From Candidatus Bathyarchaeota archaeon (GTDB lineage Archaea > Thermoproteota > Bathyarchaeia > Bathyarchaeales > Bathycorpusculaceae), in assembly GCA_963826715.1 (NCBI GenBank), contig CAWGYA010000005.1:125239-189238 (forward strand): a DNA stretch of 64,000 nt. The letters are read 5' to 3'. A program made the translations under genes and the position numbers. A model generated the notes under the pieces. The model was not told the origin of the DNA. It ran no database searches and saw only the letters and a program-made list of their open reading frames with translations. Shown in pieces: positions 30,320 through 64,000 of the stretch (within the stretch, counting starts at the first letter, position 1; every line of letters starts with the position of its first letter).

Positions 30320-30350
30320 ATGGAGCTGGGGATGGGAATTGAACCCATAT
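30320..30350 (-). repeat. left attachment site: duplicated tRNA 3' end (T-arm, acceptor strand, CCA)
   Basis: Minus strand ATATGGGTTCAATTCCCATCCCCAGCTCCA; 30320-30338 is identical to 63982-64000. Confidence 0.9.
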
Positions 30351-30471
30351 CCGTTGTCGATATCGCCAATTATGCTTATCCTAAGCAGCTTCTCTCCCTT
30401 TTTAACGATATAGGTTTCTTATCAAGACTGATTGTTTCAGGGAAAATTGGGTCGATAGGAGGTTCTTAAAT

Positions 30472-30726
30472 TTGGAGTTGGTTGACCAGCAGGAGTTTTA
30501 CCTTAAGGGTATTTATCCTGTCGACGTTCTTTCTGAGGTGAAAGATGGTTTAGTTGAGGTTCGGGCGAAAACTACTTTTCTGCATACCAGCGCATATTCA
30601 GAGGGAAAGCGCCAGGTTCGAGTCGGCGTAACTGAAAAGCGTTGGGTCAGGCGAGGGGAGGTTTTGAAGGTACCCTTTCGTCATGTTTGGTCGCATCGAC
30701 GTCGTGTAGCTTCTGGGCATGCTTGA
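30472..30726 (+). CDS. viral hypothetical protein
   Basis: GGAGG upstream of a TTG start. Confidence 0.6.
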   Translation: MELVDQQEFYLKGIYPVDVLSEVKDGLVEVRAKTTFLHTSAYSEGKRQVRVGVTEKRWVRRGEVLKVPFRHVWSHRRRVASGHA

Positions 30727-30746
30727 CTATATGTTAACTGTTATAT
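30723..30746 (+). promoter_or_regulatory. viral promoter-like motif, copy 1
   Basis: TTGACTATATGTTAA-ctg-TTATAT; repeated at 36824 and 44669. Confidence 0.65.
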
Positions 30747-30781
30747 TGGCAACTCTAAAGAAGGGATTGTTTGATGCTGCA

Positions 30782-31057
30782 ATGCTCAAACTGAACTATG
30801 AGGTTCTCGCTTCAAAGATTCATCTCAGTATGCAAGGCCATAGGGACAATAAGGGCAAGTTTGATTGGGCAAGTGCTGTTCTCGACGCTGGCATTATCAG
30901 CGGTATCACTTTTTGTACGGGGTTAGGTACTTTGGCGTCTAGTAGTGCCATTTCTTCTACGAGCTTTTGTGTGCTTCTCAGTGCAGTTGGGGCTGAGTTT
31001 CTGGGGATCTTAGCGACTAAAAGAGGACTCATACAAAAACCCGTTGGGGGCTGTTAA
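30782..31057 (+). CDS. small two-TM viral membrane protein
   Basis: Two hydrophobic segments; ATG 45 nt after the end of the motif core. Confidence 0.6.
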   Translation: MLKLNYEVLASKIHLSMQGHRDNKGKFDWASAVLDAGIISGITFCTGLGTLASSSAISSTSFCVLLSAVGAEFLGILATKRGLIQKPVGGC

Positions 31058-31060
31058 GAA

Positions 31061-31627
31061 TTGGAAGCTAAGACGGCTTTGCGTGTACCTGACTTCATGA
31101 AGCCTATTCTTGAAGACATTAGGCTTTTGCAATCAGACGGAAACAACCCAAACCGGATGACAAACAAGCAAAAAGAGGAACTATGGAAAAGCCTAAAAGA
31201 GTTCGGCTGGACTGACCCCATCCTAACAAACCAAGAGGGCGTTTTCACTGATGGGGAACAACGGGTTAGCGTCTGCATTGCCCATGGAGAATTTTATGCG
31301 CCAGTATATCGTATGAATGACCTCTCTGAGGTACAGCGACGCCGACTCAGATTGATCGCCAACGAATTGAAGGGCAAGCACAACAAAGAACTAGAAGAAG
31401 AGGAATGGCAGCGCATTATCGAGTTAGGACAACGCGAAGAGCTACAATGTTTTTTGGATTCGATTGGGGAAAAGCTGCCTGAAACATTAAGGGATGAACA
31501 CGAAAAAGTTTCCATTATCCCTGAAACTTACGAGTTAATTGTGGAATGCAAAGATGAAGCCGACCAGAAAACCAAGTTAGAGGAGCTACAGGCTAAAAGT
31601 TGGAAGGTTCGAGTTCTAAATCTTTAG
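31061..31627 (+). CDS. ParB/Srx N-terminal domain protein
   Basis: NNPNRM...SLKEFGWTDPIL...DGEQR. Confidence 0.85.
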   Translation: MEAKTALRVPDFMKPILEDIRLLQSDGNNPNRMTNKQKEELWKSLKEFGWTDPILTNQEGVFTDGEQRVSVCIAHGEFYAPVYRMNDLSEVQRRRLRLIANELKGKHNKELEEEEWQRIIELGQREELQCFLDSIGEKLPETLRDEHEKVSIIPETYELIVECKDEADQKTKLEELQAKSWKVRVLNL

Positions 31628-31638
31628 GAGGCTTCAAA

Positions 31639-32388
31639 GTGGATTTTGATTTAACTCACCGGTGGCAAGCTGGCAATTCATTCCGTGAAGAAGCCGTTAA
31701 AGGCACCTATGACCTCAGGGACGTCAAGTTGGAGAAGCATATCTGCGGAAGCCTTCCAATTGAGGGCTTGAATTGGCAGATCGGCGTTATAGTCGGGTCC
31801 AGCGGCAGCGGAAAAACCAGCATAGCCCGCCATCAGTGGCCTGAGGCTTACTTTGCAGATTTAGGGGAGCGCTATAAGCAACCTTGTTTTCTCAACGATT
31901 TCCCATCTGAACTAAGCATCAAAGACATCGAAACTGCCCTGTGTAGCAGCGGATTTAGCGAGCCGCCGTCTTGGCTAAAAAGCTATTCGGTGTTAAGTCA
32001 GGGTCAGAAGATGCGTGTGGATGTTGCCCATGCGCTTTGTCTTCCCCAAAACTTAGTTGTTTTCGATGAGTTCACAAGCACCGTGGATCGCACTGTAGCT
32101 CAAATCGGCAGCTATGCGATTAGCCGTGCCGTTCGAAAGCATCCTGGTAAACAGTTTATCGCCGTAACCTGCCATTTCGACGTGCTGGATTGGCTTGAGC
32201 CTGACTGGGTCTATGATGTAGACGCTAACGTTTTTTGGGATTACACAGGCACATTGCCGGACCAAAAGACAGCTTTAGGAACCCAAGTTAGGATTGTAAA
32301 AAAAAACGACGTCACCCGCCAATCAACTTATCAGTGCATAGGTGCAACCTTGCCCTGTGGCAGGTGTTTAGGGAACATCACTATCTAA
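31639..32388 (+). CDS. soluble ABC-type ATPase (N-terminal half of a probable ATPase-GNAT fusion)
   Basis: GSSGSGKT, LSQGQ, VVFDEFTS, VTCH; GGAGG SD then GTG at 31639. Confidence 0.88.
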   Translation: MDFDLTHRWQAGNSFREEAVKGTYDLRDVKLEKHICGSLPIEGLNWQIGVIVGSSGSGKTSIARHQWPEAYFADLGERYKQPCFLNDFPSELSIKDIETALCSSGFSEPPSWLKSYSVLSQGQKMRVDVAHALCLPQNLVVFDEFTSTVDRTVAQIGSYAISRAVRKHPGKQFIAVTCHFDVLDWLEPDWVYDVDANVFWDYTGTLPDQKTALGTQVRIVKKNDVTRQSTYQCIGATLPCGRCLGNITI

Positions 32389-32789
32389 ACACTAAGGCTC
32401 TTGGGGCTGGCATACGATGTTATGTCGCCAAATATGGGGATAAACCCATTGCGTTTATTGCAGTTGCAAATGTGCACATGAAGGTACAGTATTATCGGGT
32501 CAGTCGGCTTGTTGTCCTTCCAGATTATCAAGGCATCGGTGTAGGCAAGCGGCTATTGAATTTTATGGCGGATCTCTACACAAGGCAGACTAAGCGTCCT
32601 TTCTATATTGTAACAAGCAATCCTCAACTTGCACGTGGCTTGGCGAATTGGAAGGTTAAGCGGTTTGGGCATGGCAGTTCGGGAAGAAATAACACAAGAA
32701 TAAATCGGGGGTTGGTTAAAGCGAACAGTAGAGGGCGCTTGACATTCACATTAGAGTATGTTCCAAATATGGGAGCGCCTAAACAATGA
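32298..32789 (+). CDS. GNAT acetyltransferase in the -1 frame, reached via an A9C slippery site
   Basis: KRRHPPINLSVHR...WQVFREHHYL...RVSRLVVLPDYQGIGVG. Confidence 0.85.
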   Translation, partial: KKKRRHPPINLSVHRCNLALWQVFREHHYLNTKALGAGIRCYVAKYGDKPIAFIAVANVHMKVQYYRVSRLVVLPDYQGIGVGKRLLNFMADLYTRQTKRPFYIVTSNPQLARGLANWKVKRFGHGSSGRNNTRINRGLVKANSRGRLTFTLEYVPNMGAPKQ

Positions 32790-32813
32790 CTTTTATCGCT
32801 TTCTTGGACAATT

Positions 32814-33350
32814 ATGTCCAAAATATGGGGGTACCCCATGGAACCTGAGTTGTTTAAGCGACGTCAAAGAATGCTTAGGCTATTGGCTGTCGGAAACTCG
32901 CTAAGCGCTATTGTCCAGACTCTAAGTGCAGAGTTTCATGTTAGCGAATGGGTAATTTACAAAGACCATAAACGGATGAAAACCTGGGTTCATGCTTTCG
33001 AGCAAGACGAGGTACTGGCATCTATTTTGCGGGCACGGTTGGACTTCTTGAATCGCGAAGCCATGGGTCTTCTAACTGAAGGCGACGACAAGAAGCCGCT
33101 AAGCGTCAAAGATAAGTTTGTGAAAATTGGCGCTCTAAATACTGCTCTCAAAATTACCGTTGAGCAAATTAAGGTCGGGCAGGAACTTGGGCTGATTGAG
33201 AGAAAACCCGAAGTAATTCAATCCGCGGTTAGTTTGGCTATGCCGTTTGAGGCGTCGCCCGAGATTAAGGCTGCCTACATCAAATTCGCTGAATCTCAAA
33301 GGGCTGACAAAGATGCCACAACAAAAGCTGAACCTGACGCCGGGAACTGA
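32814..33350 (+). CDS. terS: probable terminase small subunit
   Basis: N-terminal HTH-like segment; overlaps the TerL start. Confidence 0.65.
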   Translation: MSKIWGYPMEPELFKRRQRMLRLLAVGNSLSAIVQTLSAEFHVSEWVIYKDHKRMKTWVHAFEQDEVLASILRARLDFLNREAMGLLTEGDDKKPLSVKDKFVKIGALNTALKITVEQIKVGQELGLIERKPEVIQSAVSLAMPFEASPEIKAAYIKFAESQRADKDATTKAEPDAGN

Positions 33351-34581
33351 TTTCCTCCGATACTGCCCTCATCCTGCCCAGCTTCCTTTTCACGCAGGCA
33401 AAGGCATCTATAGCCAACGGGCTTGTCTCTGTGGAACGGGTTCGGGAAAGACAAAATGCGGGTTGGCTGAGGATATTCGCTGGGCGCTGGATTATCCTGG
33501 GAGCGTCGGCTTCATTTTTGAGCCATCTTACCCAATGATGAAGCGTATTCTCTTCCCAACATTGGAGAGCAAAGATTTCTTTGGCTGCCGCTATCCTTTT
33601 ACGCAAAATCCCTACGTGGCTGACTTTAACCGTGGGGACATGCGGCTGGATTGGTTTAACGGTTCGCAGTGGTGGTTTGTCTCGCTTGACGATCCAGAAA
33701 AAGCCGAGGGTCCTAACGTTGATTATGCGCATGTCGATGAGGCGCGGCTTGTTCGCCACTTCGACACAGCGTGGCTTACAGTTGTGCGTAGGCTTCGCAA
33801 AAGTGGCCGCTGCATGGTTCCAATTAATCCGGGCATTTGGCTTACGACAACGACCGATTCTCCCGGCAGCCCTTTGTATAATATCACGGAGAACCCTGAG
33901 ACGAATTCGCCTAATATGCGGATTTACCGTTGGAGCATCTTTGAGAACCCAACGTTGCCCAAAGAATTTTTGGCAGAAATTGTACGGACTCACACGGGTG
34001 GCTTAGCTGACCGCTTTATCTATGGCAAATTTGCCACTGTCGCCGCGGGTAGCTTGCCCTTTGACTCTTCAAAGCATATTCGGGAGTTGACTGATAAGGC
34101 GTTGATTAATCGGGTTAGCTTTGGCGTTGACTTCGGTTGGAGTGCACCCAGCGCTATTGTGGTGAACGTTTTTGATCCTGACGGCAGAGCCTACGCAGTG
34201 GATGAATTCTATAAACGTGAAACTACAGATGAAGAGTTAGCGGAGGCAGCCAAAGACTTGCAAGAGACATGGGGTGAGGGAACGTTTTGGTGCGATGCCC
34301 GCTTTCCCCAGTCAATTTTAAAGCTTTGCCGTGCAGGATTAGACGCTAAGCCCTACACTTTCAAACGGGACGATGGGCTGAGGGAACTTGGCAGCCGCCT
34401 GACTCCTGCGAGCGATGGGAAGCCTCGCCAGTTTGTAAGCAAACGCTGTGTCAACCTTATCAGCGAGTTGTTGGAGTATCGGGAAGACATCAAGGAGAAT
34501 GACCATGCGACTGATGCTCTGCGGTATAGTTTGCCGCTGGAGCAAGAAGAGAAGCCGTTTTTGTATGTAGTTAGGCGTTGA
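33313..34581 (+). CDS. terL: terminase large subunit
   Basis: GTGSGKT, AHVDEA, GVDFGWSAP, ENDHATDALRY. Confidence 0.95.
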   Translation: MPQQKLNLTPGTDFLRYCPHPAQLPFHAGKGIYSQRACLCGTGSGKTKCGLAEDIRWALDYPGSVGFIFEPSYPMMKRILFPTLESKDFFGCRYPFTQNPYVADFNRGDMRLDWFNGSQWWFVSLDDPEKAEGPNVDYAHVDEARLVRHFDTAWLTVVRRLRKSGRCMVPINPGIWLTTTTDSPGSPLYNITENPETNSPNMRIYRWSIFENPTLPKEFLAEIVRTHTGGLADRFIYGKFATVAAGSLPFDSSKHIRELTDKALINRVSFGVDFGWSAPSAIVVNVFDPDGRAYAVDEFYKRETTDEELAEAAKDLQETWGEGTFWCDARFPQSILKLCRAGLDAKPYTFKRDDGLRELGSRLTPASDGKPRQFVSKRCVNLISELLEYREDIKENDHATDALRYSLPLEQEEKPFLYVVRR

Positions 34582-34621
34582 CGCCCTCAAATAGCAAGAA
34601 TATAAGCACTTAGCAAGTGAA

Positions 34622-34858
34622 CTATTCTTCTATTTTGAAGAATTCGCCAATTTGAGTGAGATGCAAATTAGCTCTGTCAAGAATAGGTTGTAAGGACTGT
34701 CTTGTACAAGTATCAAAAGAGCCTTTGAGCATTAGAGAGCATACGCCTTTATCATCATTAATAGAGATCGAGTTAAAGTCGATTTTGTATTCGGAAGTAT
34801 TTAGAATTTCTTTGAGAACCACTAACGCCTTATCTCTATTCATAGCAGAGTTCTCCAC
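34622..34858 (-). CDS. small hypothetical cargo protein
   Basis: Co-oriented downstream of the kinase; AT-rich. Confidence 0.55.
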   Translation of the reverse strand: MENSAMNRDKALVVLKEILNTSEYKIDFNSISINDDKGVCSLMLKGSFDTCTRQSLQPILDRANLHLTQIGEFFKIEE

Positions 34859-34947
34859 TAACTTGAGTCACATGATATTGTTTAAAAGGTTTAGGTATTT
34901 GGCAACATAGGGCTTAGTTGATGTGCAAAAATACATCAACAAGGAAG

Positions 34948-36669
34948 TTAATTCTGCGGTAGCTCGATTGTGAACTTTGTGCCCTTGTCTTCTTGGCTTT
35001 CAAAAGTGACGGTTCCACCCATTGCTTCGGTCATACGCTTGACTACTGCTAAGCCGAAGCCTTGCCCCTTTGATTTTGTGGTAAACATTGGCGTAAACAA
35101 TTTAGCTTTCGCCTTCTCTGGTATGCCAACGCCCGTATCTTCCAAAGTTATAATGACATTGTTTTTCTTTTTGTCTTTATAGGCATGTATTGATAGTTTT
35201 CCACCCATGGGCATGGCTTGAATCGCATTATTTACCAAATTAAACAGTATACGATTTAAGAATGAAGAATCAGCTCTGATTCTTCGGACCTCGCTTTCCA
35301 CCTTAACACTTATCTTAACATTCTCTGCCAAAACATTCTTTGACAGCAAATCATCAATTACAAGTTTTGTATCAATATCCTCGAAAGTTGGGGTGAGTGC
35401 TCTGGCAAAGTCTTGCAAATCAGCCACGATCTTGTTAATGTAGTAAACGTTCTTCTCAATTCCCTCCAAACTTTCATGGACATTTTGCTTCGTTTCGCAT
35501 TCGGGCATTGTACTCAGATCAGACTTAAGCAAATATACATCACTGGCAATCGCCTGCAATGGATTACGAATATCATGACCGACCATACCCGCAGTAGCAC
35601 CGATAGCGGCCAAACGCTCAGAATCTTTAAGCTGCTTAGTGCGCTCTTCAACAATCTTCTCTAAATTCGTAGTGTATTTCTGCAATTCTATTTGCGCTTG
35701 CTGTAATACTTCTTCAGCTTTTCTGCGCTCTGTTATATCTTGGACTGTACCAAAACCACCGAGTAATTCGCCTTTTTGGTTGGATTCCAACTCAGCTTTT
35801 TCTCTTACCCATATAACATTTCCATTAACAATAATCCTATGTTCAATATCATAGGGCTTGCCTTTTAGAGCTGCATCCCATTGCTGATTAACATATTCAC
35901 AGTCGTCAGGATGAACCCTTTGCAGGAACTTATCATACGACATTTTAGTGCCTGTTGGAATACCAAAAATGTGGTAAGTCTCATCAGACCAGAATAAATC
36001 TCCTTTAATCGTGACTCTCCAGCTACCAGTTTTAGCTACAGCCTGCGCACGGTTCAAATCATTACGGCTTTCTGTTAGCTGTTCCTTGATTTTAGTCTCC
36101 TCTTCGAGCATTTCTGCCAATTTGAGGTTTGCTAACCCTTTCTTTGATAACATCTTCGTTAGGTCGGTATAAAACGACATCAGGCGCTCTACTTCGGCAC
36201 GCTTCAATCTTGGGACATTTTTGAGGGCGCAAAGATACTCTTTCTTATCAAAGCCGTATTTCTCTGCCTGAGCAAGGAAGCGGTTAATATCCTCTGGCTC
36301 TTCCTCAAAGAAAAATTGCCCTGAGAAAATGTTGCCAACGTGTTTTCCGCCTATAAACAATGGCGTCACTGTATCGATAAGACCGTTTTTACACTTGTAG
36401 ATTCGGTATTCGCCCTCTTTTACTCCCTTTGTTAGTTCAAGGTCGCTTTCTCGGCAGTTGTTGAGTGTTTGAGGGTTTTTGCGATGGAACTTTGCACATA
36501 TATCTTGCCAGCTTGTACCGATTAGTATTTTTCCATCGAGGTCAAGAAGGTAAAAACCTATTCCGGTAATCTTAGTTAAATCTTCCATCATTGCTTGTAG
36601 TGCAGGTAGGTCTATTATCTTGGCGATGTCTTGGGCGTTAACGCCTACGCTGGAAGCTTCCGTAGCCAT
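34948..36669 (-). CDS. PocR-PAS histidine kinase (proviral cargo)
   Basis: WQDICAKFHR...CRESD...YKCKNGL (PocR); WSDETYHIFG, VHPDD (PAS); GHDIRNPL; HATPase boxes. Confidence 0.92.
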   Translation of the reverse strand: MATEASSVGVNAQDIAKIIDLPALQAMMEDLTKITGIGFYLLDLDGKILIGTSWQDICAKFHRKNPQTLNNCRESDLELTKGVKEGEYRIYKCKNGLIDTVTPLFIGGKHVGNIFSGQFFFEEEPEDINRFLAQAEKYGFDKKEYLCALKNVPRLKRAEVERLMSFYTDLTKMLSKKGLANLKLAEMLEEETKIKEQLTESRNDLNRAQAVAKTGSWRVTIKGDLFWSDETYHIFGIPTGTKMSYDKFLQRVHPDDCEYVNQQWDAALKGKPYDIEHRIIVNGNVIWVREKAELESNQKGELLGGFGTVQDITERRKAEEVLQQAQIELQKYTTNLEKIVEERTKQLKDSERLAAIGATAGMVGHDIRNPLQAIASDVYLLKSDLSTMPECETKQNVHESLEGIEKNVYYINKIVADLQDFARALTPTFEDIDTKLVIDDLLSKNVLAENVKISVKVESEVRRIRADSSFLNRILFNLVNNAIQAMPMGGKLSIHAYKDKKKNNVIITLEDTGVGIPEKAKAKLFTPMFTTKSKGQGFGLAVVKRMTEAMGGTVTFESQEDKGTKFTIELPQN

Positions 36670-36823
36670 ACAAGTGACCCTTTAAAAAAAGTACGGTAAC
36701 TTCGTTCATATAAAAACATTTGTTGTAGCAAACTAGCAACCACAAACAACCCCACCAAGCACATGCGTTCCAGAAAAGCTTTCATCAGCCTCCAACTCTG
36801 ATTTCTCGTTTTCAGCTTCAGCG

Positions 36824-36848
36824 TTGACTATATGTTAATTCTTATAAA
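36824..36848 (+). promoter_or_regulatory. viral promoter-like motif, copy 2
   Basis: TTGACTATATGTTAA-ttc-TTATAAA. Confidence 0.65.
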
Positions 36849-36977
36849 CTAACTTTGGTGATAGGGCTATTTTGTGTAGGCAGCTCTGGGGAAAGCGGTA
36901 AGCTTTAACCTCTCCCCGGGGCTGCGGGCTTGCTGTTTTCCCCATGGGTTGACCGAGACTTCAGGTCTGTTGCTAAA

Positions 36978-37838
36978 TTGAGTGAAGGTTCGGGCTGTGG
37001 GAAATGCAAGCGAGTTCATGAGCAGATAGCTCAGATTCTGCCTTTTCGAGTTCTGGAAGCCGCTGAAGGTAAGCCATTGCGGATTGCAGGCGTCGCTATG
37101 ACTGCAGGCATGTCCCGTAATCATAACGTTTACACTTCTGAAGAGTTGGAGGCTTTTGCTCCAAAACTTGTTGGGGCACCCATCTATCTTGAGCATGTCG
37201 CCGTTGAATCAGCCATCGGAAAGGTTACTAACTGCGTTTTTGATGCCCCATCCAAGAGCTTACGGTACGAAGCGGAGATTTACGACGCAGCTATGGCTGA
37301 GAAGATCCGTCAGGGTTTGATTCAGCATGTGAGTGTTGGGGCAGACTACGATGCACTTGATACAGCCAACGTGCCGCATGGGTTGCATAACGCGGAGATG
37401 TCGCTTGTTGCAGTGCCCGGTATTCCTGAAACCAACATCCAGGTTCTAGAAGCTTTACAGAAGGGGGTTAGGGGTTTGGAAGAAAAGGAGATTGAAAAGG
37501 TCGCTGAGAAAGTCGCTGCCAAGATCGGCGAGAAAAATTCTCTTGAAATTGAGGGTCTAAAAACAAAGCTTTTGGAAGCGGAGGGTAAGTTGGTGGCTGC
37601 TGAGGGTAAACTTGCCGAAGCCAACAGGACAGTTGAGCAGTTAAAGCAGCTTGTACCCGGTGTAGACTTGCTGAAGAATCCGCCCAAACTGATGCCTGTT
37701 TCTGAGGCTGTCAATATGGTTAAGGAAGCAATGCCTGCGTCGATGATTCAGCGTTCATGGGGACTTGGCCCTCAACGCATGTGTCAGGACCTGCAGCGTG
37801 TCATCCAGAAACTTGAAACTAGGGCTGGTGGCAAGTAA
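36978..37838 (+). CDS. prohead protease with C-terminal scaffold-like coiled coil (start uncertain, 36930-36978)
   Basis: IAGVAMTAGMSRN, IYLEH, VSVG, EMSLVAVPG; EGKL repeats. Confidence 0.85.
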   Translation: MSEGSGCGKCKRVHEQIAQILPFRVLEAAEGKPLRIAGVAMTAGMSRNHNVYTSEELEAFAPKLVGAPIYLEHVAVESAIGKVTNCVFDAPSKSLRYEAEIYDAAMAEKIRQGLIQHVSVGADYDALDTANVPHGLHNAEMSLVAVPGIPETNIQVLEALQKGVRGLEEKEIEKVAEKVAAKIGEKNSLEIEGLKTKLLEAEGKLVAAEGKLAEANRTVEQLKQLVPGVDLLKNPPKLMPVSEAVNMVKEAMPASMIQRSWGLGPQRMCQDLQRVIQKLETRAGGK

Positions 37839-38050
37839 TGGCTGAGAAATCTGCCGAGGGAAAACTCCACGAAGTCGATGATGTCGAAGCTGATGCGGTT
37901 ATTGAGTTTGCAAGTAGGGCTATTCCTCATAACGAGATGCTTGGTCGTGTTATCCGCAACATGTACAAGCGCATTCAGGAGTTAGAAGCCCAAATTAAGG
38001 ACCTACAAGCGAAGCAAAAAAAGGCCACCGCTAAAGTTGGAGGTCCATAG
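37838..38050 (+). CDS. small coiled-coil viral protein
   Basis: Translationally coupled (TAATG). Confidence 0.65.
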   Translation: MAEKSAEGKLHEVDDVEADAVIEFASRAIPHNEMLGRVIRNMYKRIQELEAQIKDLQAKQKKATAKVGGP

Positions 38051-38128
38051 TTTTGCTCACTTTTGTGGGGCTAGTAGCGCCAGGACGAACTGGTGTGAAC
38101 GCAGAAAGAATAAGGAGATTGATTTTAG

Positions 38129-55265: not shown

Positions 55266-57491
55266 TTATCCCGAGGGTATCGTCATCGACTGAAGGTATG
55301 CTTCCAAGGGCTTAGTTATTCGCTTTCTTTCTTGGGAGATGGCATCGTAAATGTTTAACCTCTTGTTTGGATCCTCAAGGGTTATAACGACTGCATATTC
55401 CTGTTCTTCATTTGCCCCAGTTATCAGTTTTTTGAATCGAACTCTAGGCGTAATCATTAAAGTCCATTCCATTCCCCATCCGCTTTTCTGCCATCGGAAA
55501 ACATCAGTCTTTACATTATCCCATGGATTTCGGAAATAGTTATCCCATTTCATTTGCTTTTTAAATTCGCCGTTCTTAGCTTGTTTGAGCAGTGCAAAGT
55601 CAAGGTCAACTAAATTGTATCCAACTACGCCCATATGAACGGGAGGATTGTACACTAAGGTTACACGGATTCTTTTTTCGCCGAAAATGGAGCTCATTGC
55701 GTAAGGGACATATATCGGAATAAAGGCAACCTCGTCATATCTAACGGCGTCTTCAATGATGTATGCAGGTGAAAAGTTCTGTGAAAAAGCGCTTTTTTCA
55801 AATTCGGGAGTTCCTTTGCCATACAAAGACTTTTTCAAATCACTGTCTGCTGGAAGTGAAAGATTGTTTTCATGCCAAAATGCAGAATGTATAAGAAGCG
55901 CTTTTAGAAGGTTCGGACTAGCGTCAGGATATTCCTTGAGTAGTCTAGCCAGTATATTTGAAACAGCTGGTGTTGAATAACTAGTTCCTATACCGTATGC
56001 TAACGTTTTGTTAGATAACCCTAAAGAAATCACGCCGAGGTGTTGGTTATCAGAACCTAAATTACGTGATGCATCAATTTCGAGGTTTCCTGCGCTTGAG
56101 ACGACGTCAGGTTTTCCTCTTAACCCAAATTCTCCGCGTCTTGTAAAAGGACTCGGTTGACCCACCTTCGCGATTGACATGGGGGATTCTTTATGAGCCA
56201 AACCTCCGACTGTTACCGCCATGCTTGCTTCGGCTCCGCAGAAAACCTTACAGGCGCTATCTTGCAAATAGGTCGGATAAGGTAACGACTTTGCTAAAGC
56301 AGCCAATTCGTCTTTTACATTTCCGCTACTGACCACAAAAGTCACTCTATATTCTCGGGATAACTTGTCTATAGTGTAGGCTAGGTCTGAAGGTAAAGAG
56401 GTATTGCTACATTTTGGGTAGTTTACTGATAGGGAGAAAATTTTTGCCTGCTCGTGAAAGGTTTGAACTGCCTGTTCTATTCTTTTTTCCAGATATGGAT
56501 ATTCATTGTTCTTTAGACCGTGAACTTTGACACTAATCAGGTTTGCCGAAGCTTGGGGATCCCTGCGGTTTTCCAAATTTCCGTAAGCAGCAAGACCAGC
56601 TACAAATGTTCCGTGCCCCTTGAAATCTTTAGGATCACCATCTTTGGTCAAATCAATCGAGTTAAGTAAAATATGCTTCAAGAAGGGTTGTTCAGTATCG
56701 ACGCCTGAGTCCAAGACACAGATTGTTTTTACGTCAGGCTCTGGCATTTTAGGAGATGGCATTTCCTTAATATCCATACTTTGAGGCTCTTCGCTAAGAA
56801 TTTCTGGTGCGATCCGAGTTTGCCATACTGAATCCATGCCTTGTAAAATTGCCCTAGCTGTTTGGGGATTAGCATATGTTCTAATGGAGGCAATGTGGTC
56901 ATCAATTCTTGAGTCGAGAATCAGCGCATTATTTTTTCTTAGGAAGTTTGTTAGTTCTGCGATTAAATAGGTATAGTTTTCGCGTCCCAAGTTCGGGAAC
57001 ATTTCAATTTCAATATACTCAGGAGTTCCAGAGTTTATCCATTCACTAAGTTCTGGGCTGACTCGGTTAATTCCGATAACGGATATGCGTTCGATTTGGT
57101 TGACATAAGATCTTAGTTTAGAGGTGTTTTTGTAGACTTCTATGTCGCTTCTGAGTCTTTCTAAGCCTTGCTTATCTACAGAAACAACTGCTGAATAATC
57201 GTTAACCTGGAGGGAAAACCGCATAGATAGTCTATCCAATACGCTATCCTCGTAGGAAAGTGGTTTCGCCGTCTGTACAGTAAAAAAGACATTTTCTCCG
57301 GGCATAATTTTTTCTTTTCTTTGCGATAATTTGACTGATTCCTCAAGTTGTTCAGCTAAATATTTTCCTTGCTCACCATACTCTTTCTTCTCGCCCATTT
57401 CAGGTGGAGGACCTCTCGATTTTTTAGGGCGTCGACTAATGTTATCGGTTGGTATACGAATATGCCGATGGTTAGCCCAATTTTGAGACAT
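55266..57491 (-). CDS. S8 subtilisin-like protease, IetS-like, no signal peptide
   Basis: VLDSGV, GHGTFVAG, SSGN, GTSYSTPAV, KALLIHSA, RVTLVYNPP. Confidence 0.88.
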   Translation of the reverse strand: MSQNWANHRHIRIPTDNISRRPKKSRGPPPEMGEKKEYGEQGKYLAEQLEESVKLSQRKEKIMPGENVFFTVQTAKPLSYEDSVLDRLSMRFSLQVNDYSAVVSVDKQGLERLRSDIEVYKNTSKLRSYVNQIERISVIGINRVSPELSEWINSGTPEYIEIEMFPNLGRENYTYLIAELTNFLRKNNALILDSRIDDHIASIRTYANPQTARAILQGMDSVWQTRIAPEILSEEPQSMDIKEMPSPKMPEPDVKTICVLDSGVDTEQPFLKHILLNSIDLTKDGDPKDFKGHGTFVAGLAAYGNLENRRDPQASANLISVKVHGLKNNEYPYLEKRIEQAVQTFHEQAKIFSLSVNYPKCSNTSLPSDLAYTIDKLSREYRVTFVVSSGNVKDELAALAKSLPYPTYLQDSACKVFCGAEASMAVTVGGLAHKESPMSIAKVGQPSPFTRRGEFGLRGKPDVVSSAGNLEIDASRNLGSDNQHLGVISLGLSNKTLAYGIGTSYSTPAVSNILARLLKEYPDASPNLLKALLIHSAFWHENNLSLPADSDLKKSLYGKGTPEFEKSAFSQNFSPAYIIEDAVRYDEVAFIPIYVPYAMSSIFGEKRIRVTLVYNPPVHMGVVGYNLVDLDFALLKQAKNGEFKKQMKWDNYFRNPWDNVKTDVFRWQKSGWGMEWTLMITPRVRFKKLITGANEEQEYAVVITLEDPNKRLNIYDAISQERKRITKPLEAYLQSMTIPSG

Positions 57492-57872
57492 TAGTTTACA
57501 CCTGAATTCTATGCTCGACCAGAGTCGGCTGGCGCGCGCGTTTTAACGAACATATTAAAAGAAATTGTATATCATACTTTCGGAGACCCTAAATTAAATT
57601 ACTTTTGTTTAAATGAATTAAAATAAGAAAATCAAAAGAAACGGCATTTATTAGTAGCGCGCGCTCGGTACTATCGTTCGCTTTGATGAGTTGTTGTAAC
57701 ACTAGTATTCATTTGTGTAATTTCTCATCGAATGTTTTCACTTTCACTCACCCCTCCCCTGCTATAAGATGTCGTTTCATCAACAGCTTAAAAGGACCAG
57801 TGGACGCAACTCTGGTTGCCAAGCAAGGATGGACGACAATGGGAGAAAATGGGGTTAACGGGGTAAGCAAGT

Positions 57873-58148
57873 ATGGTTTTGCTGATTCTTAGAAGAACGG
57901 TAAGGCGCCAGTTAAAAATTGAAGGGGGAGCGACCAGTAAACCTTGCAGTCAACTCGAAGACGTTGAGTTTGTCTTCCCAAAGAAATACAATAAAATGCT
58001 AAAACCACTATTCAATGGAAAGTATGACTATGAAGCAAGAGAAGAAAACGGCAGTTTAACTTTTATACTAACACCGACAAAATGCACTGAAGACGAACCG
58101 CTAATCCCAGAAGAGACGGTGAAATGCCCGAACCTGGAGGAGCCTTAA
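57873..58148 (+). CDS. small hypothetical protein, possibly AbrB-like
   Basis: Beta-rich small ORF resembling the next one in layout. Confidence 0.5.
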   Translation: MVLLILRRTVRRQLKIEGGATSKPCSQLEDVEFVFPKKYNKMLKPLFNGKYDYEAREENGSLTFILTPTKCTEDEPLIPEETVKCPNLEEP

Positions 58149-58152
58149 TTGA

Positions 58153-58365
58153 ATGGTAATAAAAATTCGGCTGCGCATGGTGAAAAGAGTGTACAAAGGG
58201 TTTCATTCCTACCCACGATGCTGGATGGAGTTTCCTAAAAAAATTTATAAAAAGTTAGAACCTCATATCGCTAAGAATTTCGACGACATCGACGTCACAT
58301 ACGAAGAGAACTCAAATCAAGAAATCGTAAAAATAATCTTGATCAAGAAAAAAGCACCTACTTAA
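58153..58365 (+). CDS. small basic hypothetical protein, possibly AbrB-like
   Basis: VYKGFHSYPRCWMEFPKKIYKKLEP. Confidence 0.55.
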   Translation: MVIKIRLRMVKRVYKGFHSYPRCWMEFPKKIYKKLEPHIAKNFDDIDVTYEENSNQEIVKIILIKKKAPT

Positions 58366-58437
58366 GAAGACAAGCCAAAACTCGTTTGAGCTCCAATTCG
58401 CCCCCGCAATAAGAATTTCAGAAGCGTAACTGCCCTA

Positions 58438-58613
58438 CTACATGTAGAAAAGCCCTCGGTAAAACGTTTCTACATGTAGGAATACGCCTGAAAAAAACGG
58501 GCAAAAGTGCACGCCGAGCCCTCTAACTGGCTCTGGTTTTAACAGGAAAATGCTAGTTTTGACAACATACTTTTAGTTTGAGCATTTTATCCATGCTTTT
58601 CCTACATGTAGAA
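58438..58613. promoter_or_regulatory. three CTACATGTAG palindromes, candidate operators
   Basis: Copies at 58438, 58470 and 58602, upstream of the wHTH gene. Confidence 0.6.
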
Positions 58614-58701
58614 GAATTTTACCTGCAGACAAGAGCGCTTGAAATGGCTGGGTTAATGTGATAAGTAACTTCTTAGCAAAATCGAAGTTTGCGGTCTTAC
58701 C

Positions 58702-59109
58702 TTGCTTGGCAAAAAAAGGTCTATGGCTGCAAGCAACAGCGAAGGCACCGAGCTTGCGGTGTTCAAAGGCATAAAAGTAGACTTAACCCAGGCTATACTC
58801 CGCATCCTATCTGATGAGGTGCTCGTAAAATATGACGTTCACAAAAAACTGGTCAAGCAAGGTTTCAAACGCACCCGTTATGGTACTGTCAAAAAAAGGA
58901 TTACGGCGCTGGAGGAAGGCGGCTACCTCAAACAGGCAGGCGTAAGGAAAACGCAGCCGGGCAATGAAGGCATCCTGTACGAGACAACCTTCACGGGACT
59001 TTTGGCGCTAAAATTGAGTGCAACCAACTTGGACAAGCTATTCGAGAATATGGATGACAACATAGCTTTAACGCTACTAGCAGCCCTGGAGCAAGTGCAG
59101 AAAAAATAG
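58702..59109 (+). CDS. winged-HTH transcriptional regulator
   Basis: AILRIL...KYDVHK...YGTVKKRITALEEGGYL...LYETT..G. Confidence 0.75.
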   Translation: MLGKKRSMAASNSEGTELAVFKGIKVDLTQAILRILSDEVLVKYDVHKKLVKQGFKRTRYGTVKKRITALEEGGYLKQAGVRKTQPGNEGILYETTFTGLLALKLSATNLDKLFENMDDNIALTLLAALEQVQKK

Positions 59110-59229
59110 GCTCCGCAGTAAGGGGTTTTAGAGATACTATTTTAGAAAAGGCATTTTGTAAAATACTATTTCTTGCAAGCGGCAGAATTCCTTTATTTTT
59201 TCTGGGCGACCTAGTCTTAGGTGTATAAA

Positions 59230-59472
59230 ATGGTTAACTTGATTGAGGACTGGGAGGTCCTCGAAGAATACGCTGGCGAAAAACTGGGCTTCTACCAGCT
59301 TCTCGCCATCGACGGGTCCGTTGAGATCCGTGTCATGACCGGAAGAATAGGTTTCAAAAAAGAGTTTAAGGATAGCAACGACAAACTGCTAAACCAAATT
59401 CTTGATTACTGCAGGAAACGCCGCTTCATACAGATCAGCGACCACCTCCGAGACGAGGACTTTTTCAAATAA
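59230..59472 (+). CDS. viral hypothetical protein
   Basis: First gene of the replication operon. Confidence 0.65.
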   Translation: MVNLIEDWEVLEEYAGEKLGFYQLLAIDGSVEIRVMTGRIGFKKEFKDSNDKLLNQILDYCRKRRFIQISDHLRDEDFFK

Positions 59473-59496
59473 GCCAGGAGCAACCGGGGAGTAACC

Positions 59497-59874
59497 ATGG
59501 ATAAGCAAGTTGAATTTCTTGTAAAACTCAGAGATGCCAGCCTAATGCTTGCCGACGCAGCAAACCAATACATAGACGAATTAGCGCCAGCAGGATGCAA
59601 GCGAGAAGAAACCAAACAAACCCTCGTAATCCAAGAGTCAAACTTTAACCTCCTAAAATTTGACGTCCAGCAAAGCGCCAAACTAGGCGAATACGAAATC
59701 GCCAATAAGCAAGGCAGTCCAGCTGACAAATGGAGTAGCGTCTATAATATTCTAAAAGGCGGCAACGCAACCATCAAAGACCGTTACCATTGTGAAGGCT
59801 ACCAATACAGCTACTGGCTATATGGTGAGGACAAAATCTACCGCCAAAAACTCAAACCGAAAAATCAAGGCTAA
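59497..59874 (+). CDS. viral hypothetical protein
   Basis: GGGGAG SD and ATG start. Confidence 0.65.
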   Translation: MDKQVEFLVKLRDASLMLADAANQYIDELAPAGCKREETKQTLVIQESNFNLLKFDVQQSAKLGEYEIANKQGSPADKWSSVYNILKGGNATIKDRYHCEGYQYSYWLYGEDKIYRQKLKPKNQG

Positions 59875-59899
59875 TCGACGTGGACCGGGGACACTTTTC

Positions 59900-60928
59900 A
59901 TGAGTCAAGTCAACATACTAAAGGAAATCTTCGTCAACCGCACAGACTGCTACTGCATCCAGCTAAAACAAGGATACTCCAAAATAGCCGAGCCACTAAC
60001 CGACGAAACACTGCTTAAGCACCTGTCGGGCGAAATAACAGTAGGATCATACCAGCTTGACAGCTGCAGCTATGTTAAGTGGCTGTGCTTTGACTTTGAC
60101 CCTGAAAAGTTGCCTGACCCTAAAAACGCTGCGAAACAGGTCTTAGAAGTTCTATTGCAAAAGCGAAAAGAAGAGGACGGCATCGAGCGACCAAGAGTAT
60201 GGCCAAACTGCATCATCTTGGAAGCATCTCGTTACCCAGATTCCTCATACCACATATGGGTTCTCTTTCTCCTCCCGGTCAAAGCTAAAGTGGCAAAATG
60301 GCTAGGGCTTCGGGTCCTGGAAATGGCAAATCTAAACCCCAAATTAATGGAAGTTTTTCCAAAGCAGAATGAAGTCACCTCCGAAAAGCCCTATGGGAAC
60401 TTTGTTAAACTGCCCCTTGGCAAACACCAGGTCGAAGGCAAATGGAGCAGAATACTTGACGTTGAAACCTTCGAGCCGTTACCCAGCGAGGAACTAGAGA
60501 ACAAGCATGGTCTAAGCTTCAGTGAAAAAGACCTGGAAACTCTCGAAGCCATGGAAACCAAACGAAACGTCCAAGTCATGTTTGAAGCCCCGCAAACCTT
60601 CAAGAGGCTAAGCGACAAAGACCAAGAGAAAACAGTGCTGTTTCTAACTCGTTACTGGCAGCCAGGCTACAGAAACGACCTCTCTTTGAGCTTCTGCGGC
60701 ATGTGCATCAAACAAGGCATTAGCTGCGAGTCAGCAAAGCGGGTAATCGAAGAAGTCTGCAAGAGAACAGGCACCTCTTCGCTGGACACAGCGGAGTTTC
60801 TTGGCAAAGTAGACTACCAATTTACCCACCGCATGAAAATCGGAAACCTCAAGGGCACCTCAGGAATCCGAGACGTCGTAGATGCCATTCGCAGTGCAAA
60901 AGCATCTCAGAAGGAGCGAGGTCAATGA
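59900..60928 (+). CDS. archaeo-eukaryotic primase (primase-polymerase-like)
   Basis: HLSGEITVGSY, WLCFDFD, SYHIWV, EVFPKQ, GNFVKLPLG; C-terminal GYRND helical domain. Confidence 0.85.
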   Translation: MSQVNILKEIFVNRTDCYCIQLKQGYSKIAEPLTDETLLKHLSGEITVGSYQLDSCSYVKWLCFDFDPEKLPDPKNAAKQVLEVLLQKRKEEDGIERPRVWPNCIILEASRYPDSSYHIWVLFLLPVKAKVAKWLGLRVLEMANLNPKLMEVFPKQNEVTSEKPYGNFVKLPLGKHQVEGKWSRILDVETFEPLPSEELENKHGLSFSEKDLETLEAMETKRNVQVMFEAPQTFKRLSDKDQEKTVLFLTRYWQPGYRNDLSLSFCGMCIKQGISCESAKRVIEEVCKRTGTSSLDTAEFLGKVDYQFTHRMKIGNLKGTSGIRDVVDAIRSAKASQKERGQ

Positions 60929-62547
60929 TAAGCGGCAAACTAAATAAGATAGAGAAAGAGGTTGAAGAAAAAGACGTCTATATCCCAAGGCCCACAGTCG
61001 TCACCCCTCAGTTCATAGCAGAGGAAATTTGGAACCGAAGAGACCCGCCGCAATACCTAGTCTACCGCTTTAATGAAGACCGATTTGAAACACTATGGGA
61101 AATTTCTCTGGGAGAAACTAACGCCAAAGGGCAAAACATCATCTATACACCTGTCTTCAATGACTCACTCAAAAAAGGCTTAGTCATCGTCCCCACAGGA
61201 TACGCCGAAACTAGTTTTACGGAGATATTTCGGGAGATAGACGAATTTGCCCTTCTAAGCTACGACCCATGCGGCCAAGACGCACTCGTGAAACTGTTAT
61301 CAAGAATATGTGTTGGATCTTGGTTTCTTGATCGCTTCGTCGCCGACCCAGCCTATGATATAGCTGGCAGCGGAAAGTTTGCCCCAATAATTCCTATCCG
61401 TGGACCAAGCCAAAGCGGCAAAAACCGATTAGCCTTCGTTTTGCGACTGCTAAGCTACAAACCTTACTTTGAAATGTCCACATATAGAATCCCAAGCCTC
61501 TACCGCCCAATGGACCTATGGCAAGGCACCTTAGTGCTTGACGAGGCAGACTTTGCGAACACGAACGAGAAAAGCGAATTGGTTCATTTCCTAAACTGTC
61601 GGGCGACGGGAACGCCGTTGAGCAGGCAAAACCCAACCAACTGTAATATCACTGATACATTCAGCAACTTTGGCTTAACTATCCTAACGCAACGCAAACC
61701 CTTCGACGACAACGCAACAGAGAGCCGAGCCCTACCCTTCTACAGCGAAACCAGCGACAAAAAACTTCCAGTAATCGAAACCGATGAGATGCTCAAACGC
61801 GGGCTGGAACTGCAAAATAAGCTCCTCTATCTAAGGATGAAATACTACCGTCTTGTCACTATCAACAAGGAAGAATGGGTTAACGAATTATGTGACCACC
61901 GCTTAGTGGCTTCTCTACTTCCGCTTCTGGCTTTGAGTAACCATGAACCAAGCCTAAAGGAAACTATTACCAAGACAGCAAAAGAGGTTGAGAGGGCTAA
62001 AGTTGAAGAAAAAGCCAACAGCATGGACGGCTTAATCGTCAATTTCCTCTGGGAAAAAATAGGCGACCGCCTATTTGAGAAGTGGCGCCCAAACATCTTC
62101 TATTTCCTAGAAAAAACAGAAATTGAAACCGTTGGCGAAATAGAAACCGAGCATAAGACAGCTCTGACCACCAAACATCTTTCAGACCAATTCAAATGGA
62201 GCTCTCAAGCTATTCGCAAAGCATTGGCGAGTTTGGGAATCGTTGAAAAAGGCTTAGTTAACTCCGTTAAAGTAGACGGGCGCACTCAGCGGGTTATATT
62301 CTTCGATCCAGCAAGGCTTGAGAAGCGACTCAGAGAATTCGTAGTCAACTACAAACCCAACACGGTTACAGAAGTTACGGGAGTTACAGATTCTAAGCCC
62401 AGCCTACAAGACAGCCCTCTATTCAATGGTGGAACAAAAAGCGATGCACCGCCCAAAAAAACCGTAACTTCCGTAACTAGCGTAACCGAAGATCAACCTT
62501 CCGATTTTATGGACAACTTTGAACTGCCAGGAGACGAACCCGAATGA
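60925..62547 (+). CDS. P-loop NTPase, putative replicative helicase
   Basis: GPSQSGKN, LVLDEAD, ATESRAL; C-terminal wHTH-like region; coupled to the primase. Confidence 0.7.
   Translation: MISGKLNKIEKEVEEKDVYIPRPTVVTPQFIAEEIWNRRDPPQYLVYRFNEDRFETLWEISLGETNAKGQNIIYTPVFNDSLKKGLVIVPTGYAETSFTEIFREIDEFALLSYDPCGQDALVKLLSRICVGSWFLDRFVADPAYDIAGSGKFAPIIPIRGPSQSGKNRLAFVLRLLSYKPYFEMSTYRIPSLYRPMDLWQGTLVLDEADFANTNEKSELVHFLNCRATGTPLSRQNPTNCNITDTFSNFGLTILTQRKPFDDNATESRALPFYSETSDKKLPVIETDEMLKRGLELQNKLLYLRMKYYRLVTINKEEWVNELCDHRLVASLLPLLALSNHEPSLKETITKTAKEVERAKVEEKANSMDGLIVNFLWEKIGDRLFEKWRPNIFYFLEKTEIETVGEIETEHKTALTTKHLSDQFKWSSQAIRKALASLGIVEKGLVNSVKVDGRTQRVIFFDPARLEKRLREFVVNYKPNTVTEVTGVTDSKPSLQDSPLFNGGTKSDAPPKKTVTSVTSVTEDQPSDFMDNFELPGDEPE
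62363..62488. repeat. inverted 3x9-bp iteron-like arrays, candidate origin
   Basis: GTTAC at 62365/62374/62383 and GTAAC at 62464/62473/62482. Confidence 0.65.
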
Positions 62548-62687
62548 GTGAATCTTCCGCTGACTCTGAAGTTTACCCCGACGGCTATGAGGAAGCCTTA
62601 GCGGACTGCACCGTCCTAGCTGCACAACTCCTCAAAATGGCACTAAAAGCAGCAGAAACCAAAAACGGAAAACCCAGAGACGATTAG
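62544..62687 (+). CDS. small hypothetical protein (47 aa)
   Basis: ATGA overlap with the helicase stop. Confidence 0.45.
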   Translation: MSESSADSEVYPDGYEEALADCTVLAAQLLKMALKAAETKNGKPRDD

Positions 62688-62701
62688 GAGAGTGGGAGGG
62701 A

Positions 62702-63958
62702 ATGGCTGGACTTACACCGAAAGAAAGCATATTTGGCAACAAAGCCGAAACAGACGGTAAGTCGCCTCCAGGCGGAGACGTCGGCTCCAGCCCCCTATGC
62801 CCACGATGCCACTCCAAAAGAGTATGGAAAGACGCCAAACGCTACACACCTATTGGCTTTGAGATTCAACGCTGGTCCTGCAGAGACTGCGGAATGCGCT
62901 TCTCAGACCCAAACGACTCTAAAAGAGCCAAAGAAGCAGCGACTAGAGACGTTGAAACAGTTGATACGAAGTCATTAAAAAGCAAAACTGGCATAGTTAC
63001 TACTCGCCAAATATGCGTAACGGAGACGAAAAACTTGGCAGCAGAACAACAGAAACCTGAAGTTCTGCTTAGGAACGAAGCAGCGATAACCAACGGAAAA
63101 ATCGTCGAATACGAGTTCTGGATGCTGAAAAGAGGATATGCGCAGAGTACTATTGAAGGCAGAGTAAAAATCATGAAGCGCCTATTCAAGCTTGGAGCAA
63201 GCTTGTTTGACCCAGAGTCGATAAAAGATGTTCTAGCAAAACAGACATGGAGCGACGGCAGAAAAGAATACGTCACCGAAGCCTACACTAACTTTCTGAT
63301 AATGGTAGGCGGCAAATGGGATCCACCAAGATACTGCAGAGTTGAAAAGATACCTTTCATACCTACTGAACAAGAAATCGACCAACTCATCGCCGGATGC
63401 GGAGGAAAAACATCGGTAGTCCTTCAGATACTAAAGGAGACGGCAATGCGGATAGGTGAAGCTTGGAAACTCAAATGGATCGACATAGACTTCGTAAACT
63501 CAACCATACGAGTTACACCAGAAAAAGGCAGCCACGCCCGAATGTTCAAAATGTCAAGCAAATTACTGGCGATGATTTCAGCGCTCCCAAGAAAAACAGA
63601 TAAGCTATTCGGCACCTACGACTTAAGAGGATTCAGAAGCTCCTTTATTAAGCAACGCAAAAGAACTGCTAACAAGCTCGGAAATCCACGGATGATACAG
63701 ATAACATTTCACACCTTCCGCCACTGGAAAGCAACCATGGAATACCATAAGACCAAAGACATCTTACACGTCATGCGACTACTCGGTCACAAGAACATCA
63801 AAAACACGCTCATCTATACCCAGCTAGTAACTTTCGAAGATGACGAGTATATTTGTAAAACAGCCGAGAACGTAAAAGAAGCCAAAGAACTTATCGAAGC
63901 AGGCTACCAATACGTATGTGACATGGAGAGCCTAAAACTCTTCAGGAAACGAAAATGA
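62702..63958 (+). CDS. int: tyrosine integrase with N-terminal Zn ribbon
   Basis: CPRC...CRDC; TAMRIGE, HTFRH, LLGH, TLIY; ends ~24 bp from the att site. Confidence 0.93.
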   Translation: MAGLTPKESIFGNKAETDGKSPPGGDVGSSPLCPRCHSKRVWKDAKRYTPIGFEIQRWSCRDCGMRFSDPNDSKRAKEAATRDVETVDTKSLKSKTGIVTTRQICVTETKNLAAEQQKPEVLLRNEAAITNGKIVEYEFWMLKRGYAQSTIEGRVKIMKRLFKLGASLFDPESIKDVLAKQTWSDGRKEYVTEAYTNFLIMVGGKWDPPRYCRVEKIPFIPTEQEIDQLIAGCGGKTSVVLQILKETAMRIGEAWKLKWIDIDFVNSTIRVTPEKGSHARMFKMSSKLLAMISALPRKTDKLFGTYDLRGFRSSFIKQRKRTANKLGNPRMIQITFHTFRHWKATMEYHKTKDILHVMRLLGHKNIKNTLIYTQLVTFEDDEYICKTAENVKEAKELIEAGYQYVCDMESLKLFRKRK

Positions 63959-63982
63959 TGCAAAAGTATATGGATTTATCCA

Positions 63983-64000
63983 TGGAGCTGGGGATGGGAA
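63983..64000 (-). tRNA. 3' end of the target tRNA (right att site); the gene probably continues beyond the window; isotype undetermined (U73 fits Cys or Thr)
   Basis: Minus strand TTCCCATCCCCAGCTCCA, identical to the left att copy. Confidence 0.6.

Follow-up and report, generated by a model that had tools for sequence, protein, structure and literature searches.

A probable temperate tailed provirus at tRNA-Cys(GCA) in a Bathyarchaeia archaeon from soil

Bathyarchaeia are abundant and almost wholly uncultured archaea, and few of their viruses have been defined end to end. For this class, head-tailed viruses were described by Duan et al. (2024; PMC10848311) as 'Fuxiviridae' (31,982 bp) and 'Kunpengviridae', and a further report gives eight complete Bathyarchaeia proviruses found via their major capsid protein (MCP), integrase, tRNA and direct repeat (PMC11705971). 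We analysed a window of 64,000 nt, positions 125239-189238 of contig C5 of the assembly G000 (2.64 Mb in 8 contigs; 96% complete, 3% contamination), in which an element of 33.6 kb (30351-63981) is bounded by copies of a tRNA 3' end. Very probably, this element is the genome of a temperate HK97-lineage tailed virus (Caudoviricetes) integrated in a Bathyarchaeia chromosome. Coordinates are window positions unless a contig is named. Other G-labels stand for related genomes, among which G015 and G004 are closed and G004, G009, G015 and G017 share the genus of G000, and L-labels stand for related loci.

Going by their descriptions, the published Bathyarchaeia head-tailed viruses resemble the element in their HK97 MCP, portal protein, TerL and tail tube, in their Bathyarchaeia hosts, in integrase-mediated lysogeny at tRNA genes and in size, which is close to the ~32 kb of Fuxivirus. 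By the same accounts hot springs and hydrothermal vents are the source of the published families; the present provirus belongs to soil populations. Unlike those families, and compared by description only, it has no Type IV CRISPR system, Cas4 or family B polymerase that we could see. Head-tailed Bathyarchaeia proviruses being already in print, the additions made here are a tRNA-Cys target with a 31-bp core, an empty site, a defence island that shares this site or stands in tandem at it, cargo genes for kinases and defence, and polylysogeny of the host.

More distant comparisons lead to the haloarchaeal tailed viruses HFTV1, HSTV-1, Humcor1 and BJ1, which gave the best TerL matches, HFTV1 also giving the best structural match to the portal. 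Host phylum and gene order are different, however, and identity to these viruses is 13-14% for the portal and at most 27% for TerL. For the MCP no match at E <= 1e-3 was found in 50,697 GenBank phage records.

The style of integration is one that we take to be bacterial, with an unsplit tyrosine integrase of the pNOB8 type. As in that type, the integrase beside att stays whole, the core is a tRNA 3' end and the tRNA is regenerated; unlike the SSV-type archaeal integrases, the present gene is not partitioned. A particular feature of the site is that two elements with 50% identical integrases use one core. The current view of temperate tailed viruses is not altered by these findings, and the value of the locus is descriptive, not conceptual: it supplies a provirus with base-exact boundaries, its tRNA-Cys(GCA) target and core, and a natural empty site. 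The integrase with its attP/attB pair is testable in vitro and might later serve as a genetic tool for the class.

Attachment repeats, empty site and a second element at tRNA-Cys

The left att repeat (30320-30350, minus strand) is 31 bp long and corresponds, as reverse complement, to the tRNA-Cys(GCA) 3' end and one further base. Of the right repeat (63982-64000, minus strand) 19 of the 31 bp are visible, and these are identical to 30320-30338 at 19/19 positions. Across the assembly, the 17-nt core of the repeat occurs at two sites only, and a 24-nt probe of the left copy, with up to 3 mismatches allowed, matched once in the window and in 0/100 shuffles. Read on the minus strand, 30321-30350 is 30/30 identical to the last 30 nt of tRNA-Cys(GCA) in G001, a part which comprises the T arm, the acceptor strand and CCA, and the base after CCA makes up the 31 bp. 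The T arm and acceptor strand of the sole tRNA-Cys of G000 (contig C2, 504616-504688) are those of the repeat. A first interpretation made from the letters of this DNA (the sequence-only reading) had proposed a 19-bp direct repeat matching a tRNA 3' end; the repeat is indeed exact, its core is confined to these two sites, and the tRNA can now be named.

The left boundary was located with four soil-metagenome runs of one study, for which contigs only were compared with window positions 20400-40399. Some of these contigs match the host flank at 99% identity or more, and in three of the four runs such a contig departs from the window sequence precisely behind 30350; the 30 letters that follow in it equal the tRNA-Cys body of C2 in reverse complement. 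The boundary of the element is placed at 30350/30351 because these contigs join the flank to the tRNA-Cys body there. A natural unoccupied attB exists in near-identical strains.

These data are consistent with a simple course of events. The viral attP would carry a 31-bp copy of the tRNA-Cys 3' end, and the element's own tyrosine integrase would have recombined it with the 3'-terminal 30 nt of the host's tRNA-Cys(GCA), duplicating the core at both ends while the tRNA was kept whole.

On the right, the sequence-only reading had ascribed the truncated repeat to the edge of the window and expected a full tRNA beyond 64000. The cut is instead the end of C5 itself, a contig of 189,238 bases of which window position 64000 is the last, and the only tRNA-Cys stands on C2 beside a different integrase. 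ARAGORN found no whole tRNA in the window or on C5, and the rest of the att core is at no other contig end of G000.

Directly beside the tRNA-Cys on C2 lies a second integrative element (C2 504689-536262; L081, L082), with its integrase on the opposite strand. That integrase has 377 aa, is 50% identical to the provirus integrase and keeps the zinc-ribbon-like N-terminus and the catalytic positions of the latter. In the 31.5 kb that follow, as far as C2 reaches, the GC content is 0.35-0.40, and the genes of this island include those for a Schlafen/AlbA_2 protein, a type I restriction-modification set (S, M and R subunits) and a GmrSD-like HNH nuclease. No virion genes were seen among the 10 island proteins scanned, and the distal att of the island was not found on C2, which ends before it. 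This restriction- and GmrSD-bearing element uses the tRNA-Cys site as well.

Two layouts of the locus are conceivable, because the tRNA-Cys neighbourhood of G017 is syntenic with both contigs and the tRNA-Cys on C2 is followed by the other integrase. In G017 the tRNA-Cys is unoccupied; the 4.6 kb upstream of it match C2 496458-504530 of G000 (69-71% identity) and its downstream flank matches C5 155532-155369, that is, window 30294-30131. Either tRNA, island, a gap, provirus and flank would form a tandem array, or island and provirus would be found in different cells, and the junction sequences fit both. The second layout, in which provirus and island each occupy the single tRNA-Cys site in different strains and the assembler broke C5 inside the shared att core, bears on the architecture only, and we regard it as a serious contender with somewhat less than an even chance. 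C5 stops 19 nt into the 31-bp core, which suggests that the reads disagree there; a 31-bp repeat alone should not, in our estimate, halt an assembly of 8 contigs; C2 has the tRNA and then the other integrase; and related samples add the empty site as a third state. On the other hand, C2 is without a distal island att, and C2 stops within the island or at its edge, which would equally fit a tandem array with an unassembled gap, just as the junction sequences are compatible with either arrangement. Under both, a virus and a restriction/defence island with related integrases would compete for, or stack at, one tRNA gene.

The site takes other forms in relatives. In G009 a whole tRNA-Cys is directly followed by an integrase 81% identical to that of the provirus, in a simple layout, while G004 and G015 hold only integrase-tail-plus-core remnants at comparable sites. 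The remnant in G015 (contig C1, ~1711690-1711800; L067) consists of the last ~100 nt of an integrase gene like that of the provirus and 17 nt of tRNA-Cys core, and its neighbour is a different provirus, itself ending in another tRNA-like fragment.

Downstream of tRNA-Cys, genomes of the genus differ strongly in their DNA, as seen when window 1-30319 is compared with the loci of G004 (L070) and G017 (L071). G004 has homologues of window 491-1626 within ~4 kb of its tRNA-Cys, and what G017 has in common with this part is limited to ~190 nt of flank and one short stretch around 23.6 kb. Island DNA may therefore also account for much of the window's low-GC left half.

Virion, replication and integration genes

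Host flank and element stand together on C5, and GC content is 0.46 in the element against 0.38 in the left 30 kb. By block it is 0.38 in the flank, 0.49-0.50 in the head and tail genes and 0.40-0.42 in the cargo, the backbone amounting to ~22 kb and the cargo to ~10 kb. An MCP search of species-representative genomes gave 26 loci, 23 of them in metagenome-assembled genomes (MAGs) named Bathyarchaeia or Bathyarchaeota, two in one Methanocella sp. MAG and one in an 'uncultured archaeon'. The non-viral flanks of the named Bathyarchaeia contigs are 66-78% identical to host DNA of G000. We assign the host to Bathyarchaeia because 23/26 related loci are in such MAGs and their flanks resemble G000 DNA, in agreement with the Bathyarchaeia-like host proposed earlier. 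No CRISPR array turned up in G000 by a crude k-mer scan, and spacers accordingly provide no evidence.

The backbone genes all lie on the plus strand. At the left end, two small open reading frames (ORFs) of 84 and 112 aa (30472-31057), without family match and kept in relatives, are followed by a gene for a ParB-like nuclease-domain protein (31061-31627; phrog_620, E 2.5e-19) and by an ABC-type ATPase (31600-32388) and a GNAT acetyltransferase (32334-32789), whose two reading frames overlap; an A7 run stands at 32300-32306. The packaging genes come next. The ORF at 32814-33350 is a candidate small terminase subunit by position, directly upstream of TerL, and has no significant family match. 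The large terminase subunit, TerL (33247-34581), scores above the Pfam cut-off for Terminase_6N and just below it for Terminase_6C, matches 915 phage records and has its likely start at the first ATG, ~66 bases into the listed ORF.

The head genes begin with a candidate maturation protease or scaffold (36930-37838), which has a weak match to phrog_7015 (E 1.3e-4) and none in Pfam. A capsid cement or decoration protein (38129-38554; Phage_cement_2, E 3.5e-8) precedes the HK97-fold MCP (38554-39507), which reaches 32.1 bits for Phage_capsid against a cut-off of 24.2 and also matches Phage_capsid_4. The portal protein of 415 aa (39566-40813) follows the MCP in gene order. By Pfam alone its Phage_portal match is weak, and its assignment draws on the fold and on the Pfam matches of homologues. 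A profile search retrieved 536 relatives at E <= 0.001, and among the 88 that were aligned, 29 match Portal_Mu and 27 Phage_portal. An AlphaFold2 (AF2) model from this broader alignment has a pLDDT of 87.8; its best Foldseek match is the HFTV1 portal (E 1.2e-8), and the lambda and HK97 portals are matched too, with probability 1.00. A model from 16 close relatives (pLDDT 46.7) was unusable, and a hidden Markov model search of PDB sequences with either portal alignment gave nothing significant (best portal E 0.14). Because the portal is confirmed by its predicted fold, the head module appears to be complete.

Next come a head-tail adaptor candidate of 119 aa and conserved structural proteins of 540 and 332 aa (44728-47707), which have no firm family match; the 540-aa protein groups with viral hypothetical clusters. 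The tail tube protein (47714-48592) matches Phage_tube_2 (E 5.8e-16) and phrog_290. A small ORF and a tail-chaperone-like ORF (48602-49276) include an alternative frame at 49121-49276 downstream of a T6 run, a candidate programmed frameshift in the usual tail-chaperone arrangement. They are followed by an HK97 gp10-like tail component (49261-49629; E 6e-12), by a short hydrophobic, putatively tape-measure protein (49626-50168), which has no family match and is 97-100% conserved in close relatives, and by a large distal tail, baseplate or fibre protein of 795 aa (50169-52556; phrog_400, tail protein, with a YQBQ-like match near the cut-off).

Small ORFs at 57683-59874, partly common to the G001 relative and without family match, are presumed to form a regulatory or early region. 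A scan of this region for sigma-70 promoters and terminators is not meaningful for an archaeon and was disregarded. The replication module comprises an AEP primase (59792-60928; AEP-TOTE, E 8.4e-22, with a PrimPol match) and a P-loop NTPase (60925-62547; Walker A and B read in the translation, and matches to clusters 25% of which have DUF3631). The tyrosine integrase (62702-63958; Phage_integrase, E 2e-19) has a zinc-ribbon-like N-terminal part, and its catalytic R, HxxR, H and Y positions are conserved in the alignment. The unsplit integrase of the sequence-only reading is hence a single ORF with a Phage_integrase domain, and the packaging, head, tail and replication genes that it listed are recovered by Pfam, PHROG and the portal fold. 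Besides TerL and the MCP, the cement, tube and gp10-like proteins also exceed their Pfam cut-offs.

Taken as a viral genome, the backbone would consist of packaging, head and portal genes, a short tail of non-contractile type, a primase-NTPase module and the integrase, and three host-like, lower-GC cargo blocks would have been inserted at module junctions. A domesticated particle system, be it a tailocin or a gene transfer agent, might be suspected from the small backbone of ~22 kb and the short tape-measure-like protein, as might a chimera from binning or assembly. Such an origin is extremely improbable, given that the element has its own integrase, primase-NTPase, TerL, portal and capsid genes bounded by att repeats, that host flank and element are on one contig with the flank syntenic to the tRNA-Cys neighbourhood of relatives, and that collinear relatives occur in 29 IMG/VR viral contigs.

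As a viral genome, the provirus looks intact when set beside its closest relatives. The provirus of G015 is 86-90% identical over the packaging, head and tail modules, and all 22 ORFs at 30719-52556, with the exception of two kinases and a 118-aa ORF, have a match in it. The structural ORFs are full length and in a single frame by this comparison, the chaperone-like ORF included. The copy in G001, 91-92% identical, is broken into several frames, which may reflect decay or assembly error. The two-frame layout of ATPase and GNAT is seen also in G015, G001, L054 (50% identity) and L073-L077, and because it recurs in relatives down to 50% identity it is a conserved feature, not a lesion, as either overlapping genes or a programmed frameshift.

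The earlier statement that no lesions are evident beyond the two slippery sites holds in that both overlaps are conserved in relatives, but fails for one cargo gene, encoding a CheB-CheR-PAS-histidine kinase. The CheB N-terminal part of this kinase is open and in frame at 41311-41534 without an ATG, GTG or TTG, and the ATG at 41364 is shifted by one base against the kinase frame. The missing start reflects either a genuine lesion at the 5' end or an indel of the assembly; a host paralogue of the gene (16071-19385) has a complete CheB domain.

These findings raise the question whether the element is a cryptic, defective prophage, integrated as described and no longer able to excise or build virions, that is kept for its kinases and defence genes. 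In favour of this, ~10 kb of host-like cargo lies within the morphogenesis modules and next to them, no small terminase, lysis or regulatory gene was recognised, and the close G001 relative is broken. G004 and G015 moreover keep only integrase-plus-att remnants at comparable sites, and the genome has several partial relatives, one of them reduced to tail genes. Yet comparison with an independent copy from a closed genome shows all structural ORFs at full length, the catalytic positions of the integrase are kept, the repeats are exact over every comparable base, and near-identical strains without the element point to recent gain or loss. On balance we find a defective prophage improbable and retain a complete temperate virus as the preferred interpretation. 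The att identity, the empty site, the gene content and the full-length ORFs are observed; excision is plausible, and present-day virion formation, the tail type and the functions of the cargo are inferred.

Several points weigh against an intact temperate virus. C5 ends within the right repeat, so that the right junction was not seen, and if a tandem array with three att copies existed, excision could remove or rearrange the neighbouring island. Small terminase, lysis/egress, repressor and excisionase genes went unrecognised in the family scans, the protease call is weak, and the 5' end of the CheB-CheR-kinase gene is doubtful. The cargo and the broken G001 relative show that members of the lineage can be old or decaying residents. 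Among IMG/VR relatives (8 loci reached via the ParB-like gene) the arrangement of integrase, att and left end was not found. No attP-spanning sequence, raised coverage or free viral contig was obtained; in the four soil runs no contig lay on 30351-40399, a missing cover that proves nothing on the activity of the provirus. Of the earlier claim of an intact temperate tailed virus at a tRNA, the tailed virus, here of HK97 type, and its complete-looking genes stand and a natural empty site exists, but the right repeat must be reinterpreted as an inter-element att or a junction present in part of the population.

Sensor kinases and a helicase/protease pair as cargo

Prophage defence cargo at the junction of tail and lysogeny genes occurs in P2- and lambda-like phages. 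In the same manner, the present element has a two-gene, opposite-strand, lower-GC block between its tail genes and early region, and the block has strong matches in PADLOC. It encodes a PDC-S28 helicase (52592-55135) and an IetS-like S8 protease (55266-57491), both on the minus strand, with GC 0.416. The match of the helicase to the PADLOC model PDC-S28 spans residues 1-842 of 847 (E 8.9e-287); that of the protease is to IetS models (E 1.1e-66). No IetA match was found among the 7 proteins scanned, and the pair is not classed as IetAS, from which, as described, the pairing of a PDC-S28 helicase with an IetS-like protease differs. Expressed from the prophage, the two proteins would most likely exclude other viruses.

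The other two cargo blocks stand at junctions of the packaging and head modules. A sensor histidine kinase with PocR-PAS-HisKA-HATPase architecture (34948-36669, minus strand, GC 0.416) separates TerL from the protease candidate, and a 118-aa ORF together with the CheB-CheR-PAS-histidine kinase (40909-44612, plus strand, GC 0.398; called kinase start 41535) separates portal and adaptor. The sequence-only reading had overlooked this host-like, low-GC cargo of ~10 kb altogether.

Neither kinase is a fixed part of the module. At the TerL/protease junction, only one of six relatives holding both genes has a kinase (L020, in G001), and in the IMG/VR relatives L074, L075 and L077, whose TerL is 94% identical, the gap between TerL and protease is 121-141 nt and free of a kinase. 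The distance from portal to adaptor ranges from 9 nt to 5.3 kb in 39 loci, one of which has a kinase there. At that junction G015, too, has a kinase, reversed in orientation and 47-67% identical. The provirus, G001 and G015 all have kinases at head-module junctions, differing in orientation and only ~50-67% identical to one another.

Judged from this distribution, the kinases appear to be recent, variable insertions at two hot spots, present there only in this provirus, G001 and G015. The pattern suggests repeated acquisition or turnover, not one inherited accident. A notion of the cassettes as invertible or transposon-like units is unsupported, no convincing inverted or direct repeats having been found at their flanks.

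One could go further and suppose that the kinases are working viral genes, and that the clade repeatedly captures host-type kinases into the TerL/protease and portal/adaptor hot spots and expresses them to tap host two-component signalling, be it for the timing of induction or for host behaviour. We consider this unlikely at present; if true, these would be the first archaeal virus-borne sensor kinases. The literature searched yielded no mention of virus-borne histidine kinases in archaeal proviruses, nor did the main text of PMC13573593, which likewise does not mention two-component systems, tRNA-Cys or tandem arrangements. What the locus does show is that cargo of host-type sensor kinases and defence genes occurs in viruses of this kind.

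Relatives within and beyond the genome

Relatives were sought with the MCP, which matched 29 IMG/VR contigs and proteins in 13 of 31 related genomes (G000 counted); for the other genomes of the same genus the count is 8 of 18. From these searches, 55 loci comprising up to 10 kb on each side of the MCP were compared. All 55 have homologues of the protease and of the MCP, 51 of the portal and 28 of the tube, and the 119-, 540- and 332-aa proteins are conserved in 29-36 of them. TerL has homologues in 2 loci, the integrase in 2 at 27-30% identity and the primase in none. By these counts the head-tail module is widespread among relatives, and the packaging, replication and integrase modules are not. 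An IMG/VR contig with a 95% identical MCP (L027, also G032) is linear and 40% complete by CheckV, and an integrase match is absent from it.

One soil Bathyarchaeia genome holds several mosaic relatives of a single virus group. On contig C7 of G000 they occupy ~66.8-103.5, 126.7-139.5 and 154.6-193.1 kb, and the last of these ends beside a tRNA-Pro(GGG), where one integrase adjoins. Relatives within the genome share tail genes at up to 97% amino acid identity while their heads differ, and C5 76.6-82.2 kb is a remnant with tail genes only. The closest relative of the provirus in G001 adjoins a tRNA-Lys(TTT).

Contig C3 begins inside a tRNA-Asn-like sequence, as read by eye in its first 60 bases, and this contig break possibly marks another integration hot spot. 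On contig C8 (1258915-1259154) a homologue of the left-end 84-aa ORF, with 87.5% identity, lies ~190 nt downstream of a tRNA-Lys(CTT), which suggests a remnant of a related element at that gene.

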